IMG/VR virus record: IMGVR_UViG_2623620492_000002
Span: 1 to 7,478 of that record
DNA length: 7,478 nucleotides
Strand: one strand, 5' to 3'
Source of the DNA: a virus
Lineage: Duplodnaviria; Heunggongvirae; Uroviricota; Caudoviricetes
The position numbers and the translations under genes are program-made. Each line of letters starts with the position of its first letter. Within the stretch, counting starts at the first letter, position 1. Under the pieces are notes generated by a model that was given only the letters and a program-made list of their open reading frames with translations, did no database searches and was not told the DNA's origin. Positions 1-7,478 of the stretch are shown one piece after another.

Positions 1-727
1 TAATCTGTCTGACAATATCCTTGTGCCTGTACAGTTCCCGCAGCGCCGCGCAGACTCGCTCCCACTTCCGGACATGATTTTTCGCCCGACGCAGTTCGCG
101 GTTTGCCATATGCAGTGATGGTAAAACCAGGTCATCAGCTCGCGTTTCAGTAAACGATGGCAGCGAATGCACAATGTCCGCCACAGTTTCTGTTTTAATA
201 TCTTCCTGTGTTGCAGCCTCCTGTACTGGTAACGCAACACATGCAGGTTGAGGAAAGGCTTTACCATCAGTTTCCGCTACCGATGCAGCTTTCGGCTCTG
301 CTGGTAAATTATCGCCCGGCATGCAGTAACGAAATTTACCGTTCTGATTAACGCGAATCAGACGACCTTTACTGATTGCCATTGCCAGCGTTGAAGCCAC
401 TTTGCGTGATGTGGTGCCGAAAAACGTAGCCAGTTCATCCGCCGTTTGTGGTCCGCGTTGTTCAATCGTCGCGGTTAAATCGCACTCTGAGATTTTCGCT
501 ACTGTCGCCGTGGTGGTTTCTTCCGGCTGTTCTTCTGGCGCTGGCTGTTCCTGCTGAACGTTGTTATCAGCCACACGCCAGGTGTATACGCTTTTATCAA
601 CGAAGCCAGCCTTTTTCAGTTCCCACAGCTCGTTCAGTACTTCTTCACGACTGATATCAAGTCGCGCAGCCAGCTCTACCGACGTGGCTTTTCCCATCGC
701 TTTCAGTGCGTCAAAAACAGTCTCCAT
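1..727 (-). CDS. Partial CDS (3' end lies left of the window; at least 242 codons): prophage early-operon protein with a winged-helix-like N-terminus, function unknown
   Basis: Absent from the ORF track because there is no stop inside the window. ATG at 727-725 (minus) is preceded by GGGAGG with a 6-nt spacer. Translation begins [43 protein letters not shown] and stays open to position 2. It sits 32 bp downstream of the P-like gene on the same strand. Confidence 0.55.
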
Positions 728-759
728 AAATTTCCTCCCGGTAAAAATTACTTCTCAAC

Positions 760-1425
760 TCAAACAAACCCAGCCGCTTTCCGGCGTTCATATTCCTGTT
801 TCAGTAACTCAATTGGCGTTGGCCCCGACGGGCGTTTGGGTGCCGCCAGTTGTCGCCGGACTGGCGGAACGCTCAGGCCGTTACTAACATGCTTTGCCCA
901 TTTCGTCAGCTGCCGTTCTGCAAGCCGTTTTAATTCCCCTTCGGTCATCTGGCGCTCAATCCCCTTTGAACGCATCTCGAGGCAAATGTGATACAGCACA
1001 GGCTGAGACCACGGGTACTTATCACTTCCGTCGTATCGCCAGGACTCATTGCGCCAGCGGCGGTACTCCTCCATCACAGCATCCACCGTCAGACCAAATG
1101 GATTTGCCCCACTCTCCGACATCAGCGCCACAAACTCAGCCAGGTCCGGAGGCCATGTTTCACCCGCCCGGCAGCGGTCCATGCACTGGCGGCAGACCAG
1201 CCGGATTTGCTGCTCAGTCATCACGCCAATCTGTGCAATCCAGAGCTTCGAAGGTGCGGCCCCGTTCTTCTGGGTCCAGCGGTTCGAATAAGCCTCCCCC
1301 ATGAGTTCCCACAGCTTCCACGCCGTTTCCGTCGCTGATAAATCCGTTTTCACGTTCCCACTGCTCACGTGCTGCCCGAATTTCCTGAACTGACCGTGAT
1401 GCGGTGCCACCTGGTGCGGCTGCAT
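760..1425 (-). CDS. Lambda P-type replication protein (DnaB helicase-loader homolog), 221 aa
   Basis: ORF track 760..1425. The C-terminal half ([59 protein letters not shown]) matches my recollection of the lambda P C-terminal region (ESYPWKSNAHYWLVTNLYQNMRANALTDAELRRKAADELV...). ATG at 1425 has an SD-like AAGGGGGTGA about 5 nt upstream. An alternative internal start at ATG 1221 (154 aa) lies just after the O-like stop. Confidence 0.65.
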
Positions 1426-2338
1426 GGCTCACCCCCTTGCTGACTGGTTTAACCTGCGCCCTGACGTGATTTACGTGACGGGCGAATTTCTGCTCCCACT
1501 GAACCTGCGTGAACACTTTGCCCTCCGCTGCCCAGTAGTCCCGGAAGGCGGCAAGTTCAGCTGGTGTAAATTCCGGCTCAGGAAGAGCCACGCCCCACAG
1601 CGCAGCCCGTCGTCGAAAATCCGGCGACGGATGCCAGCCATCGGTCATCGGAAATTTCCCGATGGGTTCGCTCAGGCCTTCCAGGTAATCAGGTTCCGCT
1701 GTCTGCAACGGCACGCCATTTGCCTCACTGGCCGGAGCACCCTCGCGCACGCGCGCGTTATGTGTGGGGTTTATATATCTGTTATCTGTTATCTGGATAC
1801 CGCATGACAAAGCGTTAGCCTTATCCTTAGGCTTATCCTCAGGCAAAGGGATTGCCTTATCGAATGCCATCCCCAAAGCCTCAGAAACCCCGTAGGACGC
1901 GGCTCTCAGCGATTCCCTGGCCTCCCATTTGAGAGGGCAATCAGGAATTAAAGCGAATGCCTTTGCCCAGGATTTAATGACATTTATCGAGTTTGGCGGA
2001 TTGTGTTTCGCAGCATTCGGGAGCCAAAAAACTCTGGCTTTGATATCTGCTTTCACCATGCCAAGATTCATGGCTTCGCCTAAGGCTAAGTCAAAGGCTT
2101 CGATATCCCACCCCAACTCTTCAGCCATTGCTGCCCGCCCGGCTTTAAACAACCCAGGAATAATCCCGGTAAATGGACTGGTCAGCAGATAAATAAACAA
2201 ACTCTGTCCACTTGGAGGCAGAGGAGATAACGCCCTAAATTTGGGATCATCCCATATCGTTATTTTTACCTTGCGATAAGGCTCATTGTTTGCCTTAGTT
2301 TTTGGCATGGGATTTGGCATGTTTTTAGCCTTAACCAT
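1214..2338 (-). CDS. Replication initiator in the lambda O position with a DnaT-like C-terminal region; 374 aa from ATG 2338
   Basis: Track ORF 1214..2392 actually begins at a TTG (forward CAA at 2390-2392). The first ATG with a plausible SD (GAGG, 5-nt spacer) is at 2338 ([13 protein letters not shown]...). It lies directly upstream of the P-like gene, is O-sized, and has a Trp/Phe-rich C-terminal segment ([36 protein letters not shown]) reminiscent of DnaT-like domains of phage replication proteins. The last 70 codons overlap the P-like ORF in another frame. Confidence 0.6.
1769..1862. other. Candidate replication origin inside the O-like gene: AT-rich tract plus iteron-like direct repeats
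   Basis: AT-rich GTTTATATATCTGTTATCTGTTATCTGGATA (1769-1799) contains ATCTGTT/ATCTGTT/ATCTGGA tandem 7-mers (1777-1797). Adjacent repeats are TTAGCCTTATCC (1815-1826), TTAGGCTTATCC (1827-1838) and TTGCCTTATCG (1852-1862), plus the inverted repeat GGCAA-AGGGA-TTGCC (1842-1856). The cluster encodes the Pro/Lys-rich linker ([11 protein letters not shown]) of the O-like protein, as the lambda ori does in O. Confidence 0.35.
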
Positions 2339-2349
2339 AATTGCCTCAT

Positions 2350-2378
2350 CTGGTGTCGAACCTTCCTCCGGATATAAT
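2350..2378 (+). promoter_or_regulatory. Putative sigma70 promoter for the opposite-strand 151-aa ORF
   Basis: Perfect -10 hexamer TATAAT at 2373-2378; only a weak -35 candidate (TGGTGT/CTGGTG around 2350-2356). Sits 40 bp upstream of the ATG at 2418, which has a strong SD. Confidence 0.35.
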
Positions 2379-2417
2379 CTGTGATTCCCCAATCAACAGA
2401 ACCAAAGGAGGTTCGAC

Positions 2418-2873
2418 ATGTCTTTAATGGCTGTTTGCCAAAAAATTAAAAATCACATGCGCACTGTGTACAAAATTAACCAGCACGACCACGACATGGT
2501 TAACCTGGTAACATGCAGGGCTATAGTTCTCACCCGCTTCCACCTGATTCTTACAAATCACTCACGGGATTCTCTCCTGAGCCCCAGTAGCTATGATTCG
2601 CTGGCGAGATTGCTATACCAGGCAAGTGAAAAACGTATTACTGATCCCTTATCTGTTTCCCCTGTCCTTGCTCTTCACATTCTGGAAGACGCTCTCTATG
2701 ACCCCCGTCAGGAATGCGACTATCAATTTCTTGAAGCTGAGAAATCAATGAGAGAATGGTTCGTTGAATATCGCGAACGGCAGCAAAAGTTACCCTCAGA
2801 GTATTCAGAACTTCCGCAACTTCGCTGGAGTGACCTTCCGAACGAATTATTTGCTCTGACCCCAGAAAATTAA
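2418..2873 (+). CDS. Hypothetical protein, 151 aa, opposite-strand moron candidate; no recognisable family
   Basis: ORF track 2418..2873. ATG at 2418 is preceded by AGGAGG (2406-2411) with a 6-nt spacer. The 5' half is AT-richer than its neighbours and carries several rare codons (AGG, ATA, CGG, AGA, CTA). No minus-strand ORF covers 2339-2637. Product begins MSLMAVCQKIKNHMRTVYKINQHDHDMVNLVTCRAIVL. Confidence 0.5.
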   Translation: MSLMAVCQKIKNHMRTVYKINQHDHDMVNLVTCRAIVLTRFHLILTNHSRDSLLSPSSYDSLARLLYQASEKRITDPLSVSPVLALHILEDALYDPRQECDYQFLEAEKSMREWFVEYRERQQKLPSEYSELPQLRWSDLPNELFALTPEN

Positions 2874-3051
2874 TTCTTGGGGATAAATCGTCCATAACTG
2901 AGCGCAGGCTAAGTTCTGCGCTCTGAAGCTTCCGAACCGAAGTTTCTGTACCCCAACCCGCAATTTCTGCATTTTTTGCAAGTTTCAGGATCCAGTCTCG
3001 TAGTTCGCCGGGAGTAAGATTTCCGGCATTTATGTACGGTTTGATTTTCAT
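2638..3051 (-). CDS. Hypothetical protein, 137 aa; uncertain because its 3' 236 bp run antisense through the 151-aa plus-strand ORF
   Basis: ORF track 2638..3051. ATG at 3051 lies 19 bp downstream of the YdaT-like stop with only a weak SD (AGGG about 12 nt upstream). Several rare codons (GGG x3, AGG x2, ATA x2, AGA, CGA), and the 2900-2923 hairpin sits inside it. Confidence 0.3.
   Translation of the reverse strand: MKIKPYINAGNLTPGELRDWILKLAKNAEIAGWGTETSVRKLQSAELSLRSVMDDLSPRINFLGSEQIIRSEGHSSEVAEVLNTLRVTFAAVRDIQRTILSLISQLQEIDSRIPDGGHRERLPECEEQGQGKQIRDQ
2900..2923. other. GC-rich hairpin (8-bp perfect stem, 8-nt loop) 27 bp downstream of the 151-aa ORF stop
   Basis: GAGCGCAG (2900-2907), loop GCTAAGTT, CTGCGCTC (2916-2923). 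No U-tract follows on the plus strand, so it is not a canonical intrinsic terminator. Confidence 0.4.
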
Positions 3052-3070
3052 TATTGGATACCCTATTCAA

Positions 3071-3493
3071 TCAATGCACTACAACAGAATCGTCGGACGC
3101 TCCACCACCGCCGAAATGCGCTTTACGGTAAACGGCCTGGACTGCGTCATCATGCGCATCAATTGCCGTACTCAACGCTTCCTGCGCCGCCAGTAATGCA
3201 CGGCGTTCCAGGGTATCGAAGATGCAGAGTCGGTGACGCAGCTCCCGCGGAAGGATTGCCAGAATTGCTGGGATCAGCTTCTGAATTTTTTCCCTTTGCG
3301 CTTCCGTTTCACCTTTTAACCAACGGCGATAGATGTTCTGCTGATTGTTCCAGTCCTTGCCTGGTGTCAGAGACAATTCACCTCCCCCCTGGCGCAGATA
3401 TTCTTCAGTAATTGCGTTAGCGACCCACGCCTGCCCTTTTTCGGCTGCCAGGGCTAACAGCACTGATTCGATGTGCTCATGCCTGATTTTCAT
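3071..3493 (-). CDS. YdaT-like protein (CII functional-analog class of Rac-type prophages), 140 aa
   Basis: ORF track 3071..3493. ATG at 3493 is preceded by AGGAG with a 7-nt spacer and overlaps the Cro-like stop by 17 bp. Size and position directly after the Cro-like gene match YdaT; the assignment rests on position and size, not a verified alignment. Confidence 0.6.
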   Translation of the reverse strand: MKIRHEHIESVLLALAAEKGQAWVANAITEEYLRQGGGELSLTPGKDWNNQQNIYRRWLKGETEAQREKIQKLIPAILAILPRELRHRLCIFDTLERRALLAAQEALSTAIDAHDDAVQAVYRKAHFGGGGASDDSVVVH

Positions 3494-3752
3494 GAATCAA
3501 CTCCTGTGTATTTTGTGTGTTAGCCTTACATCCAACAGGTAAACCGTCGGTTGGATTCGGGTAGATATCAGGCCGGAGTTCATGAGGTGTAACCTCGAAA
3601 TTCGTAGCCTCTGCGATACGCAATACCTTTTCGGGGCTTAACTGACTACGGCCAGTAGCTACGAGGCTAATCATCGATTGCGAACAACCAGCCAGAGCGG
3701 CCAAACAAGACTGTCGTACACGATTTTTTTTCAAATATTCATCTAATGTCAT
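3477..3752 (-). CDS. Cro-like HTH regulator (YdaS/Cro class), 91 aa from ATG 3752
   Basis: Track ORF 3477..3791, but the ATG at 3752 has an SD (AAGGTGA, 5-nt spacer) while the ATG at 3791 has none. HTH-like segment QSCLAALAGCSQSMISLVATGRSQLSPEKVLRIAEAT. Divergent from the repressor gene. Confidence 0.65.
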   Translation of the reverse strand: MTLDEYLKKNRVRQSCLAALAGCSQSMISLVATGRSQLSPEKVLRIAEATNFEVTPHELRPDIYPNPTDGLPVGCKANTQNTQELIHENQA

Positions 3753-3780
3753 AAGGGTCACCTTAGTAATGCTCGCCAAA

Positions 3781-3809
3781 ATATTAACCATACTAATTTA
3801 AATGATCAA
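3781..3809 (-). promoter_or_regulatory. PR-like promoter for the cro-like operon (minus strand): -35 TTGATC, 17-bp spacer, -10 TAATAT
   Basis: Read on the minus strand: TTGATC (forward GATCAA 3804-3809), 17 nt, TAATAT (forward ATATTA 3781-3786). Predicted start near 3773 gives a leader of about 21 nt carrying the cro SD. The -35 is embedded in TGATCAATA, a motif also found at the PL-like promoter. Confidence 0.45.
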
Positions 3810-3822
3810 TACTTATATCAGT

Positions 3823-3850
3823 TTGAGATTATGAGCTGTGTTCATAAGAT
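3823..3850 (+). promoter_or_regulatory. PRM-like promoter for the repressor gene, predicting a leaderless mRNA
   Basis: -35 TTGAGA (3823-3828), 16-bp spacer, -10 TAAGAT (3845-3850); a start 7 nt downstream coincides with the A of ATG 3857. The repressor ATG has no properly spaced SD. Confidence 0.35.
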
Positions 3851-3856
3851 GGTGGT

Positions 3857-4321
3857 ATGAGAAGAAAACGCGAAGAAATCGCATCGCCAGAAGCTACGCA
3901 GCGTCTACGCGGAATCTGGGATGCAAAAAAAAGAGAGCTCAAACTGACTCAGGAGCTTGCTGCCGAGCTAATGGGCTTTGAGACACAATCTACGGTTAGC
4001 CACTATCTCAACGGAAAGGCTCCACTTAACACTGATGCGGCATTAAAATTCGCAGTATTGCTAAGAGTTAAGCCTGAAGACTTGAGGCCTGATTTAGCTG
4101 ATCTGATGAATTACGTCCGTTCCTCTGGAACTTATGACGAAAGTTTCGAAGGCGAAGGGTGGCGGATGGTTAACAAGCAACAAGCTGATTTACTGGATCT
4201 TTTTGATATCCTCCCCGAATCAGAAAAAGCAAAACTAATCGAAAGGCTTAAAGGCCAGAATGAACTCTACAAAGAAGCGTTTGAAAATATGCTGGCAGCT
4301 CAGAAACGCATGAAGAAATAG
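3857..4321 (+). CDS. Prophage repressor, cI/RacR-like XRE-family HTH protein, 154 aa, no S24 peptidase domain
   Basis: ORF track 3857..4321. HTH motif LTQELAAELMGFETQSTVSHYLNG. Divergent from the Cro-like gene and followed by an intrinsic terminator. No Ala-Gly/Ser...Lys autocleavage module is visible in the C-terminal half. Confidence 0.75.
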   Translation: MRRKREEIASPEATQRLRGIWDAKKRELKLTQELAAELMGFETQSTVSHYLNGKAPLNTDAALKFAVLLRVKPEDLRPDLADLMNYVRSSGTYDESFEGEGWRMVNKQQADLLDLFDILPESEKAKLIERLKGQNELYKEAFENMLAAQKRMKK

Positions 4322-4343
4322 CTCCCACTACCTCGTAACTAAA

Positions 4344-4366
4344 CCGCCATCCCTGGCGGTTTTTTT
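4344..4366 (+). terminator. Rho-independent terminator after the repressor gene
   Basis: CCGCCA (4344-4349), loop TCCC, TGGCGG (4354-4359), then a T7 run (4360-4366). AAA upstream could make it partly bidirectional. Confidence 0.65.
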
Positions 4367-4462
4367 ATCCCCTCCGCCCCCATCACCTTACTTTTTTATC
4401 AAAAAAAACACTAAAATTTTCATTAGGATAGTACATTTTTATCAATAAAATGCATATTTGTG

Positions 4463-4491
4463 TTGATCATCAATATGAATATAACTAATAT
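4463..4491 (+). promoter_or_regulatory. PL-like promoter for the rightward early operon: -35 TTGATC, 17-bp spacer, -10 TAATAT, overlapping a TTGAT-C-ATCAA dyad
   Basis: TTGATC at 4463-4468 and TAATAT at 4486-4491, the same hexamers and spacing as the PR-like promoter. The inverted repeat TTGATCATCAA (4463-4473) and further ATCAATA copies (4441-4447, 4469-4475) are candidate operator half-sites. Confidence 0.45.
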
Positions 4492-4557
4492 TATTACAGA
4501 AGCAGCACGGCGCTGTAGGTTTTAGTTCCGCCACCCGGCGTTAAGGGGAGAGATAAG

Positions 4558-4692
4558 ATGGTACATTACGAAGTAGTTCAGTATTTGATGGATTGTTGCG
4601 GTATCACTTACAGCCAAGCTGTACAGGCTCTACGCAGCAACGACTGGGATCTCTGGCAGGCAGAAGCCTCTATCCGCAACAACAAAATGTGA
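4558..4692 (+). CDS. Small protein, 44 aa, first gene of the PL-like operon (YdaG/YdfB size class)
   Basis: Absent from the ORF track (too short). ATG 4558 is preceded by AAGGGGAG with a 7-nt spacer; stop TGA 4690-4692. Product MVHYEVVQYLMDCCGITYSQAVQALRSNDWDLWQAEASIRNNKM. The track ORF 4593..4784 in another frame is probably spurious. Confidence 0.5.
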   Translation: MVHYEVVQYLMDCCGITYSQAVQALRSNDWDLWQAEASIRNNKM

Positions 4693-4702
4693 GGTGCGAA
4701 AA

Positions 4703-4855
4703 ATGCAAAAAATCGACCTCGGCAACAACGAATCCCTGGTGTGTGGCGTGTTCCCCAACCAGGATGGAACGTTCACCGCCATGACTTATACCAAAAGCAA
4801 GACATTCAAAACTGAAACGGGCGCACGTCGCTGGCTTGCCAGAAATACTTGCTAA
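4703..4855 (+). CDS. Small protein, 50 aa (YdaF/YdfC size class)
   Basis: Absent from the ORF track. ATG 4703 is preceded by GAGGTG with a 6-nt spacer, 10 nt after the previous stop (translationally coupled). Product MQKIDLGNNESLVCGVFPNQDGTFTAMTYTKSKTFKTETGARRWLARNTC; stop TAA 4853-4855. Confidence 0.5.
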   Translation: MQKIDLGNNESLVCGVFPNQDGTFTAMTYTKSKTFKTETGARRWLARNTC

Positions 4856-5044
4856 TCCATTATTTGGATTAATTCAATATTCTCGCTGTAGGGGTATAGC
4901 CGAGGCCACCAAAGCCCGGAGGTGGTGAAATAAAACCGGGCACAACACGAAGGCGCATTTCCGATATCCATAAAGAGTCGGTCTTGTCTGTTAAATTTAA
5001 ATGGTGGGAGTGCGCCTCCGGTTGTGAATAACAACACTGCTGTG

Positions 5045-5100
5045 TGTAGTCTTGGCGGCATCAGTTTTTTCTTGAAGTTCGACTGATGTCCGCCCTTTTT
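5045..5100 (+). ncRNA. dicF: DicF-like small RNA ending in an intrinsic terminator
   Basis: TTGGCGGCATCAGTTTT ... CTGATGTCCGCCCTTTTT: GGCGGCATCAG (5054-5064) pairs with CTGATG-T-CCGCC (5083-5094), followed by C plus T5 (5095-5100). The stem and T-tail match my recollection of E. coli DicF (GGCGGUAUCAGUUUU...GCCGCCCUUUUU). It lies in a 412-bp stretch with no credible ORF, between the small ORFs and the kil-like gene, as dicF does in Qin. The 5' end is not determinable from sequence. Confidence 0.5.
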
Positions 5101-5279
5101 AAAGTGAATTTTGTGATGCGGTGAATGCGGCTAAGCGCACGCGGAACAGTTAAAAAGCTATTGTCCTTCGTAGCAGAGTTATGGGTGAAATATCCGGCGT
5201 TAATTGTTAACTGGTTAACGTCACCTGGAGGCACCAGGCACCGCATCGACAAAATTCATTTGTAAAAATGGAGATAATT

Positions 5280-5501
5280 ATGATTGCTCATCACTTCGGA
5301 ACTGATGAAATACCACGTCAGTGTGTGACCCCTGGCGATTATGTTCTTCATGAAGGTCGGACATATATCGCCTCGGCAAACAATATTAAAAAGCGAAAAC
5401 TTTATATTCGTAACCTGACCACAAAAACATGCATTACTGACTGCATGATTAAAGTCTTCCTCGGTCGTGATGGTTTACCTGTAAAGGCGGAGTCATGGTG
5501 A
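5280..5501 (+). CDS. KilR-like small protein, 73 aa (candidate cell-division inhibitor); assigned by size and position
   Basis: Track ORF 5268..5501, but GGAGA at 5270-5274 gives a 5-nt spacer to ATG 5280, while ATG 5268 has no SD. Product [73 protein letters not shown]. Sits where Rac carries kilR, between the small ORFs and racC-recE. Confidence 0.55.
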
Positions 5502-5671
5502 TGACTAAGAAAATAAAATGTGCTTACCACCTTTGCAATAAAGAAATTGAAGAAAGCAAAAGTATTAAAAGACCACTTCATTTCATGCGTGGAGTTATCC
5601 CAACGACGGAAATGAAAAAATATTGTAGTGAAAGTTGTGCCGAAAAAGACCAGATGGCACACGAACTTTAA
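5495..5671 (+). CDS. Small Cys-rich protein, 58 aa, possible zinc ribbon (YdaE-like position)
   Basis: Absent from the ORF track. ATG 5495 (or 5501) overlaps the previous stop in ATGGTGATGA. Product [58 protein letters not shown], with C-x4-C and C-x3-C pairs. The antisense track ORF 5402..5662 is probably spurious. Confidence 0.5.
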
Positions 5672-5745
5672 TTAACTGACTATGCGAAACTGAATTTATG
5701 CCAGCAATGGCAGGGATTCGCTCAACCTTAATTAAGGAGAAAAAC

Positions 5746-6021
5746 ATGATTACCAGTTATGAAGCCACTGTTGTAACTACTGATGACATTGTTCACGAGG
5801 TTAATCTGGAAGGAAAGCGTATTGGCTACGTGATTAAAACAGAAAATAAAGAAACCCCATTCACTGTGGTTGATATCGACGGCCCATCAGGCAACGTAAA
5901 AACACTTGATGAAGGTGTCACAAAAATGAGCCTGGTTCACATCGGAAAGAATCTGCCCGCAGAAAAAAAAGCCGGATTTCTGGCAACTCTGATTGCAATG
6001 AAATTAAAAGGTGAAATCTGA
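5746..6021 (+). CDS. Small protein, 91 aa, RacC-like by size and position
   Basis: Track ORF 5698..6021, but AAGGAG at 5734-5739 gives a 6-nt spacer to ATG 5746 (MITSYEATVVTTDDIVHEVNLEGKRIGYVIK...). Immediately upstream of the recE-like gene. Confidence 0.6.
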   Translation: MITSYEATVVTTDDIVHEVNLEGKRIGYVIKTENKETPFTVVDIDGPSGNVKTLDEGVTKMSLVHIGKNLPAEKKAGFLATLIAMKLKGEI

Positions 6022-6030
6022 AAAAAGAAA

Positions 6031-6049
6031 GCCTGCATAACGTGCAGGC
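6031..6049. other. Perfect 7-bp stem hairpin between the RacC-like and RecE-like genes; looks like a minus-strand terminator
   Basis: GCCTGCA (6031-6037), loop TAACG, TGCAGGC (6043-6049). The plus strand has an A-tract upstream (AAAAAAGAAA 6021-6030) and no U-tract downstream, so the U-tract follows the hairpin only on the minus strand. Confidence 0.4.
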
Positions 6050-6119
6050 CTGAGTGAAGAACCTGGGACATTTATTCATCACTCGCAGTAATTTTAATCT
6101 GAGTTGAGGTTAAAAAACA

Positions 6120-7478
6120 ATGAGCACAAAACCACTCTTCCTGTTACGAAAAGCGAAAAAATCATCCGGTGAACCTGACGTCGTCCTGTGGGCAAGTGAC
6201 GATTTTGAATCGACCTGTGCCACTCTGGACTATCTGCTCGTTAAGTCAGGTAAAAAACTGAGCAACTATTTTAAAGCTGTTGCCACAAATTTTCCTGTTG
6301 TTAATGACCTTCCCCCTGAAGGTGAGATCGATTTTACCTGGAGTGAACGCTATCAACTCAGCAAAGACTCCATGACATGGGAACTAAAACCGGGAGCAGC
6401 GCCAGACGACGTTCACCACCAGGATAATGCTCAAGAAACCAAAGAACTGGCGGGAGGCCAGGAAGAAAACGCGCAGGCAGACGCCCACGAGGATTGCCAG
6501 GATTGCGAAGTCTCTGTAGCCACTTTGCGGTTCACACAGCGTCTTCTGCACATTTTTACGTATGCGGCCGGGGATCGGAAATACCTGCATCATGCCACCC
6601 GAGAACAACGCGAACACATTACTGCTCTTGAGATGGATCAGGAAAACAGCTATGTCCAGAATCTGCTGTTGGCCATACGCAGCATGGCAGAACCGACAAC
6701 TCTGGATAATGCCGCCCTGCTCCGCTTGACTGATGCAATTAAGGCAGTTTTCTCTATCACTAAAAAACATCAGCCCTATGAATTTAAGAATTTCATTTCA
6801 GCCTGGCTGGATACCGAACACATTGATCGCGGTCTTCTGACAAAAGAATGGCGAAAAGGGAATCGTGTTTCACGCATCACTCGCACGGCTTCCGGTGCTA
6901 ATGCTGGCGGCGGGAACCTCACAGATCGCGGCGAAGGTTTCGTCCACGATCTGACGTCACTGGCGCGCGATGTAGCCACTGGCGTACTGGCCCGTTCAAT
7001 GGACGTGGACATCTATAACCTTCATCCGGCACACGCTAAACGCATTGAGGAAATTATCGCTGAAAATAAACCACCCTTTTCTGTTTTCCGCGACAAATTC
7101 ATCACCATGCCTGGCGGGCTGGATTATTCCCGCGCCATCGTGGTTGCGTCCGTGAAAGAAGCACCAATTGGGATCGAGGTCATCCCCGCACACGTCACTG
7201 AATATCTGAACAAAGTACTGACTGAAACCGATCATGCCAACCCTGATCCGGAAATCGTGGATATTGCCTGCGGTCGCTCCTCGGCCCCGATGCCGCAGCG
7301 AGTAACAGAAGAAGGAAAACAGGACGATGAAGAAAAACCACAACCATCTGGCGCAATGGCAGATGAACAGGCAACGGCTGAAACAGTGGAACCGAATGCA
7401 ACTGCAAAATGGCATCTGAATCGATCGCAGTTTGGCATTCGAATCGATCATGATTTGGCATCCATCTCCGATCACAGT
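6120..7478 (+). CDS. recE: Exodeoxyribonuclease VIII (RecE-like), N-terminal 453 codons; CDS continues beyond the window
   Basis: Absent from the ORF track (no stop in window). ATG 6120, open in frame to 7478. N-terminus [96 protein letters not shown] and the later block [48 protein letters not shown] match my recollection of Rac RecE. All minus-strand track ORFs inside it are antisense artefacts. Confidence 0.8.

Follow-up and report, generated by a model that had tools for sequence, protein, structure and literature searches.

The 7,478-nucleotide (nt) stretch of DNA analyzed here (hereafter, the window) is positions 1 to 7,478 of the IMG/VR virus record IMGVR_UViG_2623620492_000002 (Caudoviricetes), and it comes from a Rac-like lambdoid prophage of Escherichia coli, of which it comprises the immunity and replication region. 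Between the ydaT gene and an O-like replication gene, the plus strand contains an open reading frame (ORF) of 151 amino acids (aa) at 2418-2873, which an earlier prediction, made from the letters of the sequence, had described as a self-contained single gene interrupting the minus-strand operon. Our analysis indicates instead that the operon continues through this region as a 137-aa minus-strand ORF (2638-3051), and that the plus gene is always accompanied by this convergent gene, which is also under purifying selection. The interpretation that we favor, and that comparisons among related loci make probable, is that a real plus-strand gene and the convergent 137-aa gene form a mobile, partly dual-coding two-gene cassette in a variable slot of the PR-type operon. 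Long antiparallel overlaps in which both partners are bona fide protein genes are generally regarded as rare and questionable in bacterial and phage genomes, and annotation pipelines do not allow them. The cassette is a clean test case for dual coding, with both genes selected down to 25-30% identity in several genera.

Two convergent genes and their shared coding DNA

We consider the plus-strand ORF at 2418-2873 to be a genuine gene, on the basis of its conservation, its codon-position signature, its Shine-Dalgarno (SD) sequence and ATG, and an AlphaFold2 model of its product. Among 5.8 billion proteins, homologues from Salmonella, Serratia, and metagenomes (84-89% and 49-58% identity) were 151 aa long and aligned at full coverage with no insertions or deletions. 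When 1.84 billion cluster representatives were searched exhaustively with a profile, only 23 relatives were returned, of 148-162 aa and ∼25-36% identity, and a scan of genome contigs gave one extra locus. The predicted ORF is present, and its full-length conservation in distant homologues is beyond chance. The relatives share an invariant C-terminal motif, L-x-x-L-x-W-x-D-L-P-x-x-L-F. The protein itself is acidic (isoelectric point 5.9) and soluble, and has no transmembrane segment. Structure prediction, which had been proposed as a check, was run with AlphaFold2 on 27 family sequences and gave a predicted local distance difference test score (pLDDT) of 92.6 and a predicted template modeling score of 0.88; a first run with 12 sequences (pLDDT 61) was not used. 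The model is a compact, all-helical bundle against which the C-terminal motif packs (pLDDT 85-94). It has no structural neighbor, i.e., it is an orphan fold. Readings of the motif as an F-box or a clamp-binding site were dropped because of this packing and because the motif fits neither consensus.

The original prediction had recognized no family for this protein, and profile searches agreed: there were zero matches in Pfam, PHROGs, PADLOC, and NCBIfam, and a search of PDB sequence profiles produced only noise (E ≥ 0.25). The exclusion, defence, or toxin functions that had been proposed found no support in any search and remain a guess. In both the plus and the minus proteins, the conserved residues are nearly all hydrophobic, except R34 and D139 in the plus protein, and no catalytic-type residues are conserved. 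Because of this hydrophobic bias, the sequences suggest that the two products are binding or regulatory proteins rather than enzymes. The plus protein is probably non-enzymatic and a member of a small orphan family, and its confident predicted fold with no structural neighbor makes it a good target for work on prophage accessory-gene function.

The convergent minus-strand ORF at 2638-3051 (WP_040092190) is, as far as its conservation and codon pattern indicate, a genuine gene as well. It starts 20 nt after the ydaT stop codon and overlaps the plus ORF by 236 nt. Its 137-aa product matches PHROG 37051, a family with no known function, over positions 1-137 of 137 (E = 3.8e-92). The minus antisense frame was open in all 18 of the 18 loci checked, over 115-259 codons compared with 4-98 codons in the other two antisense frames, and this held even at loci where the plus proteins are only 28-31% identical. 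Among related loci, the minus proteins share 23-49% identity and an N-terminal motif, KPYInAGnLtpxELrxWL, that begins at the initiator, and the ORF length ranges from 110 to ∼170 aa. The protein is predicted to be helical, with a coiled-coil-like sequence. Its translation-initiation region (3052-3065, minus strand) contains a weak SD, AGGG (3061-3064); most relatives have a GGAGG-type sequence. The window proteins and the distant homologues of both genes were compared with PADLOC-DB 2.0, with no match.

The minus protein seemed poorly conserved in the first database search because gene callers choose one of the two ORFs; at the Serratia and Salmonella loci, only the plus ORF was called. At the cassette in E. 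coli, RefSeq annotation by the Prokaryotic Genome Annotation Pipeline (PGAP) holds only the minus ORF (WP_040092190) and nothing under the plus leader, and the sole phage record that contains the cassette DNA (PP818812.1) annotates both ORFs. A terminator-like hairpin on the plus strand at 3007-3027 (GCCGGGAGTAAGATTTCCGGC followed by ATTTATGT) lies within the minus codons for AGNLTPG and depends on codon choices found only in the close clade.

To analyze selection in the two frames, we used codon alignments of 11 divergent loci. The identity values for codon positions 1/2/3 given below were calculated from seven closer loci (clade A), and the codon-position P-values come from column-wise tests over all 11 loci. 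Both non-overlapped parts showed a classical coding pattern: identity was 0.57/0.69/0.46 in plus codons 1-60 (position 3 below position 2, P = 2.4e-7) and 0.51/0.63/0.38 in minus codons 1-59 (P = 2.7e-8). At plus codons 74-99 (2638-2715; 0.74/0.82/0.36), the plus frame alone is constrained; the C-terminal tail of the minus protein, encoded opposite these codons, has 29% amino acid identity, an unconstrained position 2 (P = 1e-5), and a variable length. In the core overlap (2716-2873), the third position is relaxed in neither frame, with values of 0.74/0.75/0.69 for plus codons 100-151 and 0.77/0.70/0.75 for minus codons 60-112, and third positions there are more conserved than in the non-overlapped parts (P = 5e-8 for the plus frame and P = 1e-9 for the minus frame). 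The overlap phase is identical in all loci: plus codon positions 1, 2, and 3 face minus positions 1, 3, and 2, respectively. When codons were resampled synonymously with the plus protein fixed, the probability that the minus frame was open was 0.005-0.50 per locus (product 1e-10); with the minus protein fixed, the plus frame was open with a probability of 0.002-0.23 per locus (product 1e-18).

As all three codon positions are constrained, we conclude from these alignments that ∼160 nt (2716-2873) are apparently dual-coding for conserved parts of both proteins. The features expected of an antiparallel dual-coding pair were found: both ORFs are intact beyond the effect of the partner, each is selected in its own frame outside the overlap, and the freedom of the third position is lost. 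The original prediction had set the two frames against each other, with selection on the minus frame instead of the plus frame counting against the plus gene. The minus frame is indeed selected, but the plus frame is selected as well, and this either/or test is a false dichotomy because both frames are under purifying selection.

Some copies are decayed. Homologue P0004 has a compensated frameshift in the plus C-terminus; at loci L033 and L074, which belong to one contig, the plus ORF is cut to 26 aa and the minus ORF is intact; at L008, the minus ORF is truncated to 110 aa beside insertion sequence (IS) fragments; and in Trabulsiella (L009), unrelated sequence takes the place of the N-terminal half of the minus ORF.

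Leader and hairpin of the plus-strand gene

The leader of the plus gene (2350-2417, plus strand) is the best-conserved DNA of the cassette, even where the proteins share only 28% identity. Across loci, the 68 nt upstream of the ATG follow the pattern TGGTGYCGAACCTTCC...TAnnCT...AGAACCnAAGGAGGTTCGACATG. The two signals named in the original prediction are present: TATAAT as a candidate −10 element at 2373-2378, with TAnnCT at the same place in relatives, and AGGAGG as the SD at 2406-2411, 6 nt upstream of the start codon (ATG, 2418). Among the loci compared, neither the SD nor the start codon varies. A weak −35-like sequence, CTGGTG, lies at 2350-2355. The leader also contains a 10-nt inverted repeat with 10/10 pairing, the 5′ arm of which (TGTCGAACCT) is at 2354-2363 and the 3′ arm of which (AGGTTCGACA) is at 2409-2418; the latter adjoins the SD and extends through the SD-to-ATG spacer to the A of the start codon. 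The −10-like element sits between the two arms. The predicted leader hairpin has a folding energy of −29.2 kcal/mol (z = −3.4), and its extended helix includes the SD.

An alternative promoter-like sequence, TTGGCA-16-CATAAT (2314-2341, plus strand), was reported by a consensus scan with 10 of 12 matches. The CAT of its CATAAT is the complement of the ATG of the O-like gene as annotated in PP818812, and a transcript starting from this site would contain the whole conserved leader and both hairpin arms. The site lies outside the conserved cassette and was not conserved in the other loci, i.e., it is lineage-specific. Control of the leader by YdaT through the sequence TGATT-N4-AATCA (2382-2395, plus strand) was rejected as a general feature, since the site is not conserved in other loci.

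The GC hairpin that had been predicted downstream of the gene is present as a 9-bp GC-rich stem at 2900-2923 (plus strand), 27 nt past the plus stop codon and inside minus codons 43-51 (SAELSLRS). Its 75-nt context folds at −23.5 kcal/mol (z = −2.4). The position of the hairpin is conserved in the closer clade, where 78% of cells were paired, compared with 26-49% in slid controls, and its covariation score was reached by 7 of 500 shuffles. At loci L003 and L006, the stem contains G-U wobbles that are workable only on plus-strand RNA, and these favor a function of the hairpin on that RNA. We regard it as a candidate element for ending the plus transcript, at the 3′ end or as a terminator. Because it has no U-tract, it does not qualify as a canonical intrinsic terminator; U-rich tails follow the hairpin only at L005, L037, and L040.

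Mobile cassette, variable slot, and gene neighborhood

The cassette spans ∼2350-3065: conservation starts abruptly at ∼2350 and stops just past the minus start. Among close relatives, variability is 40-50% in the flanks and 14-20% in the cassette interior. The cassette occurs in Escherichia, Salmonella, Serratia, and Trabulsiella. In lambdoid backbones, which carry three different replication modules, it follows cro (L003, L004, L005, L007, and L010); it is also found within a P2-like element with cox and int (L006) and beside IS fragments (L008). Judged from this distribution, the plus and minus genes travel together as one mobile cassette.

We also analyzed the slot that the cassette occupies, which the original prediction had suggested comparing among syntenic prophages, and the slot proved to be variable. 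Of 5426 complete E. coli genomes, 57 contained the 75-nt leader, and the plus gene was present in only 22 of these 57. Other cargo is present in strain F9792 and in prophage Sp4 of the O157:H7 strain Sakai: in F9792, the identical leader is followed by an unrelated 83-aa gene, which a convergent 98-aa gene abuts with no overlap. In IMG/VR, the leader motif GAACCNAAGGAGGTTCGACATG was found in 89 contigs, ahead of ORFs of 26-156 aa that fall into at least 10 unrelated families. These include a family of 97-99 aa at 23 loci, one of 83 aa at 15 loci, and a BssS-like protein (PF13991), and several of the ORFs have convergent partners that overlap by 87-392 nt or abut at 0-4 nt. As one leader heads at least 10 unrelated ORF families, the slot between ydaT and the replication genes is, on these comparisons, a hotspot of variable accessory cargo. 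Marked by the 68-nt leader in the early operon of Rac-like/lambdoid prophages, O157:H7 Sp4 included, the hotspot holds many uncharacterised small proteins.

Horizontal acquisition had been proposed from AT-richness and rare codons, and the composition argues for it weakly. The cassette has a GC content of 0.45-0.46, which is below the values for ydaT and the O-like gene (0.53 each) and for P (0.58) but equals those for ydaS (0.44) and the cI-like gene (0.45), and the rare-codon content of 7.3% is ordinary for the window, with no enrichment.

The window is 100% identical to E. coli strain C5 (NZ_CP010122). On the minus strand, it contains the cro-like gene ydaS (3477-3791), the CII analogue ydaT (3071-3493), an O-like gene with a DnaT domain that ends at 1214, and a lambda-P-like gene (760-1425); the 137-aa ORF is oriented in the same direction as these genes of the PR-type operon. 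A cI/DicA-like repressor gene is on the plus strand (3857-4321). The start of the O-like gene is ambiguous: it is TTG 2392 in the mechanical ORF list, ATG 2338 in phage record PP818812, and ∼2128 according to PGAP, ∼210 nt further in. The PGAP start leaves ∼500 nt with no RefSeq annotation. PP818812.1 (L002), registered as “Actinobacillus phage vB_Apl-pPE4,” carries a cassette 99.8% identical to that of the E. coli prophage and has the entire Rac-like gene order (kil, recE, and ydaT) in common with it. The Actinobacillus host seems doubtful, and the record may represent a prophage of E. coli that entered at the propagation or assembly stage.

At the ydaS/ydaT junction (3484-3499), the minus strand reads TGATTCATGAAAATCA, which is identical to the published YdaT-box of Rac (PMC11879457). 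The pattern TGATT-N(2-8)-AATCA occurs four times in the window (3484-3499, 2545-2560, 345-360, and 2382-2395), compared with 0.09 expected. The copy at 2545-2560 is a YdaT-box-like site with an N6 spacer inside the plus ORF, and TTAACC-16-TATAGT (2500-2527) lies just before it; this N6 site is kept in 21 of 26 close loci and is lineage-specific. The copy at 345-360 is a further N6 site, and that at 2382-2395 is the N4 variant within the plus leader. YdaT is a tetramer able to bridge two boxes. DNA looping or additional YdaT-controlled promoters are conceivable consequences of the repeated boxes.

Possible regulation, alternative explanations, and known systems

The arrangement of the two genes suggests how they might be regulated. 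The plus gene would have its own start of transcription in the conserved leader and run counter to the operon, and the minus gene would be read from PR together with the other operon genes. The two products could then be mutually exclusive, owing to convergent transcription and to the pairing of sense and antisense RNA over 158-272 nt; as the plus gene is read against the PR operon that carries the minus gene, such exclusion would be expected from interference and from the RNA duplex. The plus product would be made in the repressed prophage and the minus product during infection or induction, and plus transcription could damp leaky read-through from PR, as lambda oop does for cII. In read-in transcripts, the 10-nt inverted repeat would sequester the ribosome-binding site (RBS) by fold-back inhibition in the manner of IS10. 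In a transcript started at the internal −10, the RBS would be free, and the transcript translatable, because the 5′ arm is left out. Taken to its full extent, this scheme describes a two-state prophage module with a lysogeny protein (plus) and a lytic protein (minus) of opposing or paired functions, mutual exclusion via the dual-coding overlap, and a portable insulating leader that marks the hotspot. We offer this wider scheme tentatively and think it rather unlikely to hold as a whole. If it did, one protein might, e.g., be an effector of exclusion or defence and the other confer self-immunity against it, or both might modulate the switch or replication.

Several observations weigh against the interpretation as a dual-coding two-gene cassette with its own expression signals. 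RNA structure could supply part of the constraint in the overlap. Among 18 close E. coli/Salmonella variants, the variable sites are spread evenly over the codon positions (the counts are flat and small) and omega is 0.1-0.9, which points to weak or relaxed selection on short time scales. Frameshifts are found in some copies (P0004; L033 and L074). The leader inverted repeat was examined for covariation and showed none, since its two arms hardly vary, and it could function at the DNA level or within the PR transcript of minus sense. The consensus promoter scan did not report TATAAT at 2373-2378, where the −35 is poor, and canonical promoters and terminators sought in the related loci were not consistent across loci. 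Of the earlier claim that the plus gene has its own expression signals, the conserved leader and RBS are upheld, whereas the promoter, with a weak −35 and a site unreported by the scan, and the terminator, a hairpin with no U-tract, are less secure.

Two simpler explanations retain only one of the genes. In the view implied by RefSeq/PGAP, which annotates WP_040092190 alone, the minus ORF is the only gene and the plus ORF is a shadow ORF held open by minus codons; the existence of PHROG 37051 for the minus protein fits this view. It is nevertheless extremely improbable, given that the 220 nt of the plus ORF outside the minus ORF have a plus-frame coding signature, that plus codons 74-99 are constrained where the minus frame is unconstrained, and that the plus SD and ATG are invariant; the open plus frame given the minus protein (product 1e-18) and the pLDDT of 92.6 obtained from the plus family alignment also contradict it. 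The opposite view, implicit in the original prediction, is that only the plus ORF is a gene and the minus ORF is an antisense artefact. The gene callers that called just the plus ORF in Serratia and Salmonella, the unconstrained C-terminal tail of the minus protein, and its weak SD in the window are compatible with this, but we judge it improbable: minus codons 1-59 carry a minus-frame signature (P = 2.7e-8) with a conserved motif right from the start codon, the minus ORF is open in 18 of 18 loci and beyond what the plus protein imposes (product 1e-10), conservation of the plus third positions is anomalously high in the overlap (P = 5e-8), and a start 20 nt past the ydaT stop is a good operon position.

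Other explanations accept the locus and assign it a function. The pair might be a toxin-antitoxin (TA), abortive-infection, or superinfection-exclusion module, in which a harmful product and its neutraliser are coupled by the antisense overlap. Its place in a variable hotspot of the prophage immunity region would suit such a module, as would the strict linkage of the genes, their convergence, which resembles that of 3′-overlapping type I TA systems, and their movement between phage backbones. Yet there is no match in PADLOC, Pfam, or NCBIfam, neither protein is small or hydrophobic or has a transmembrane segment, no catalytic-type residues are conserved, and both partners are proteins, with no RNA antitoxin, so that we consider this function unlikely. 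Alternatively, the cassette could serve phage lysis-lysogeny or replication control, with the minus protein an early regulator near the CII position and the plus transcript a PRE- or oop-like antisense RNA with an incidental ORF. Consistent with this, the cassette is always one or two genes downstream of cro or cox, by CII-like genes and upstream of replication genes; the plus transcript resembles lambda oop and PRE in being directed at ydaT, cro, and cI; and 21 of 26 close loci have a YdaT-box-like site within the plus ORF (PMC11879457). That internal box is lineage-specific, however, and the cassette is dispensable for the switch because the slot carries unrelated cargo in sister prophages and most related prophages have no cassette. 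A role in the switch is possible but doubtful.

We then compared the two-gene cassette with known systems, of which the nearest is the ECs1072 family (NCBIfam NF033230, function unknown; prophage Sp4 of Sakai, now ECs_5703). Sakai ECs_5703 scored 105.7 bits against NF033230. Like the plus gene, members of this family lie in the slot after ydaS/ydaT and before the replication gene, are oriented on the opposite strand behind a near-identical 68-nt leader, and encode 151 aa; an unannotated convergent ORF also overlaps them in equal phase (overlap 269-392 nt). In Sp4 (L054 29117-29677, plus strand), an unannotated ORF of 169-186 aa is convergent with ECs_5703, with a 317-nt overlap, and RefSeq keeps only ECs_5703; the N-terminal motif of this ORF, GGLSDVELAEWLIHKAN, resembles the minus protein of the window. 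The plus protein of the window had no match to the NF033230 hidden Markov model at E ≤ 1 (membership requires ≥ 70 bits). The distant plus homologues P0025, P0032, and P0041 scored 16-24 bits, with E = 4e-5 to 0.01 for distant homologues. In hhalign, the plus family and ECs1072 were aligned with a probability of 75% (E = 2.5e-5 over 74 columns), and the partner proteins with a probability of 43% (E = 2.4e-4), in the N-terminal half only. Unlike the plus family, the ECs1072 proteins do not have the C-terminal LPELxWxDLPxELF. These comparisons suggest that the ECs1072-type pair and the window pair are very distantly related, in both genes. In a Sakai lysogen, the microarray signal of ECs1072 was regulated (PMC2241611), which is a weak hint of expression, from a distant relative.

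A phage moron, in the concept of Hendrix and Juhala, is an extra gene with its own promoter and terminator between conserved neighbors. As in morons, the cassette shows presence/absence and allele polymorphism in a fixed slot, its GC content is below that of the flanking ydaT and O/P genes, and it has conserved expression signals of its own and independent transcription, both predicted. Unlike morons, it is a two-gene unit with one member in the surrounding operon, its members overlap and are dual-coding, its leader is common to many unrelated cargo genes, and its terminator is non-canonical. In lambda oop/pO, likewise, a promoter at the start of the replication gene reads back into the gene downstream of cro, between cII and O. 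A 3′-end sense/antisense overlap is predicted here as in oop, and the CATAAT of the 2314-2341 site contains the start codon of the O-like gene, as that of pO contains the O start codon. No sequence similarity to lambda oop/pO was seen when compared by eye, and, unlike oop, a 77-nt non-coding RNA with a strong terminator, the transcript here carries a conserved 151-aa ORF.

Antisense overlapping genes of E. coli O157:H7 are described as embedded in an older “mother” gene and as taxonomically restricted, young, and often disordered (PMC9927249); related literature covers Pseudomonas aeruginosa (PMC8850804; review, PMC7457138). The cassette resembles these genes in having two protein frames on opposite strands of one DNA. 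It differs from the O157:H7 genes in its partial 3′-3′ overlap, in that each gene has an independent part and the plus protein is confidently folded, and in that the arrangement persists to 25-30% identity in several genera of Enterobacterales. Fold-back inhibition in IS10 reportedly shields transposase translation from outside transcripts (Davis, Simons, and Kleckner in 1985). As in IS10, the 3′ arm of the leader repeat spans the SD-to-start spacer and the 5′ arm is upstream of the −10, so only read-in transcripts could form the hairpin; unlike IS10, the leader repeat has no covariation and may work on the other strand or as DNA. Type I TA systems with 3′-overlapping convergent transcripts (txpA/ratA and bsrG/SR4) combine a small hydrophobic toxin with a non-coding antisense RNA, whereas the partners here are soluble proteins of 137-151 aa (grand average of hydropathy −0.44 and −0.47) with protein-level selection on both. 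Belonging to no named family, the cassette fits the description of a moron-like accessory cassette combined with an antiparallel dual-coding gene pair.

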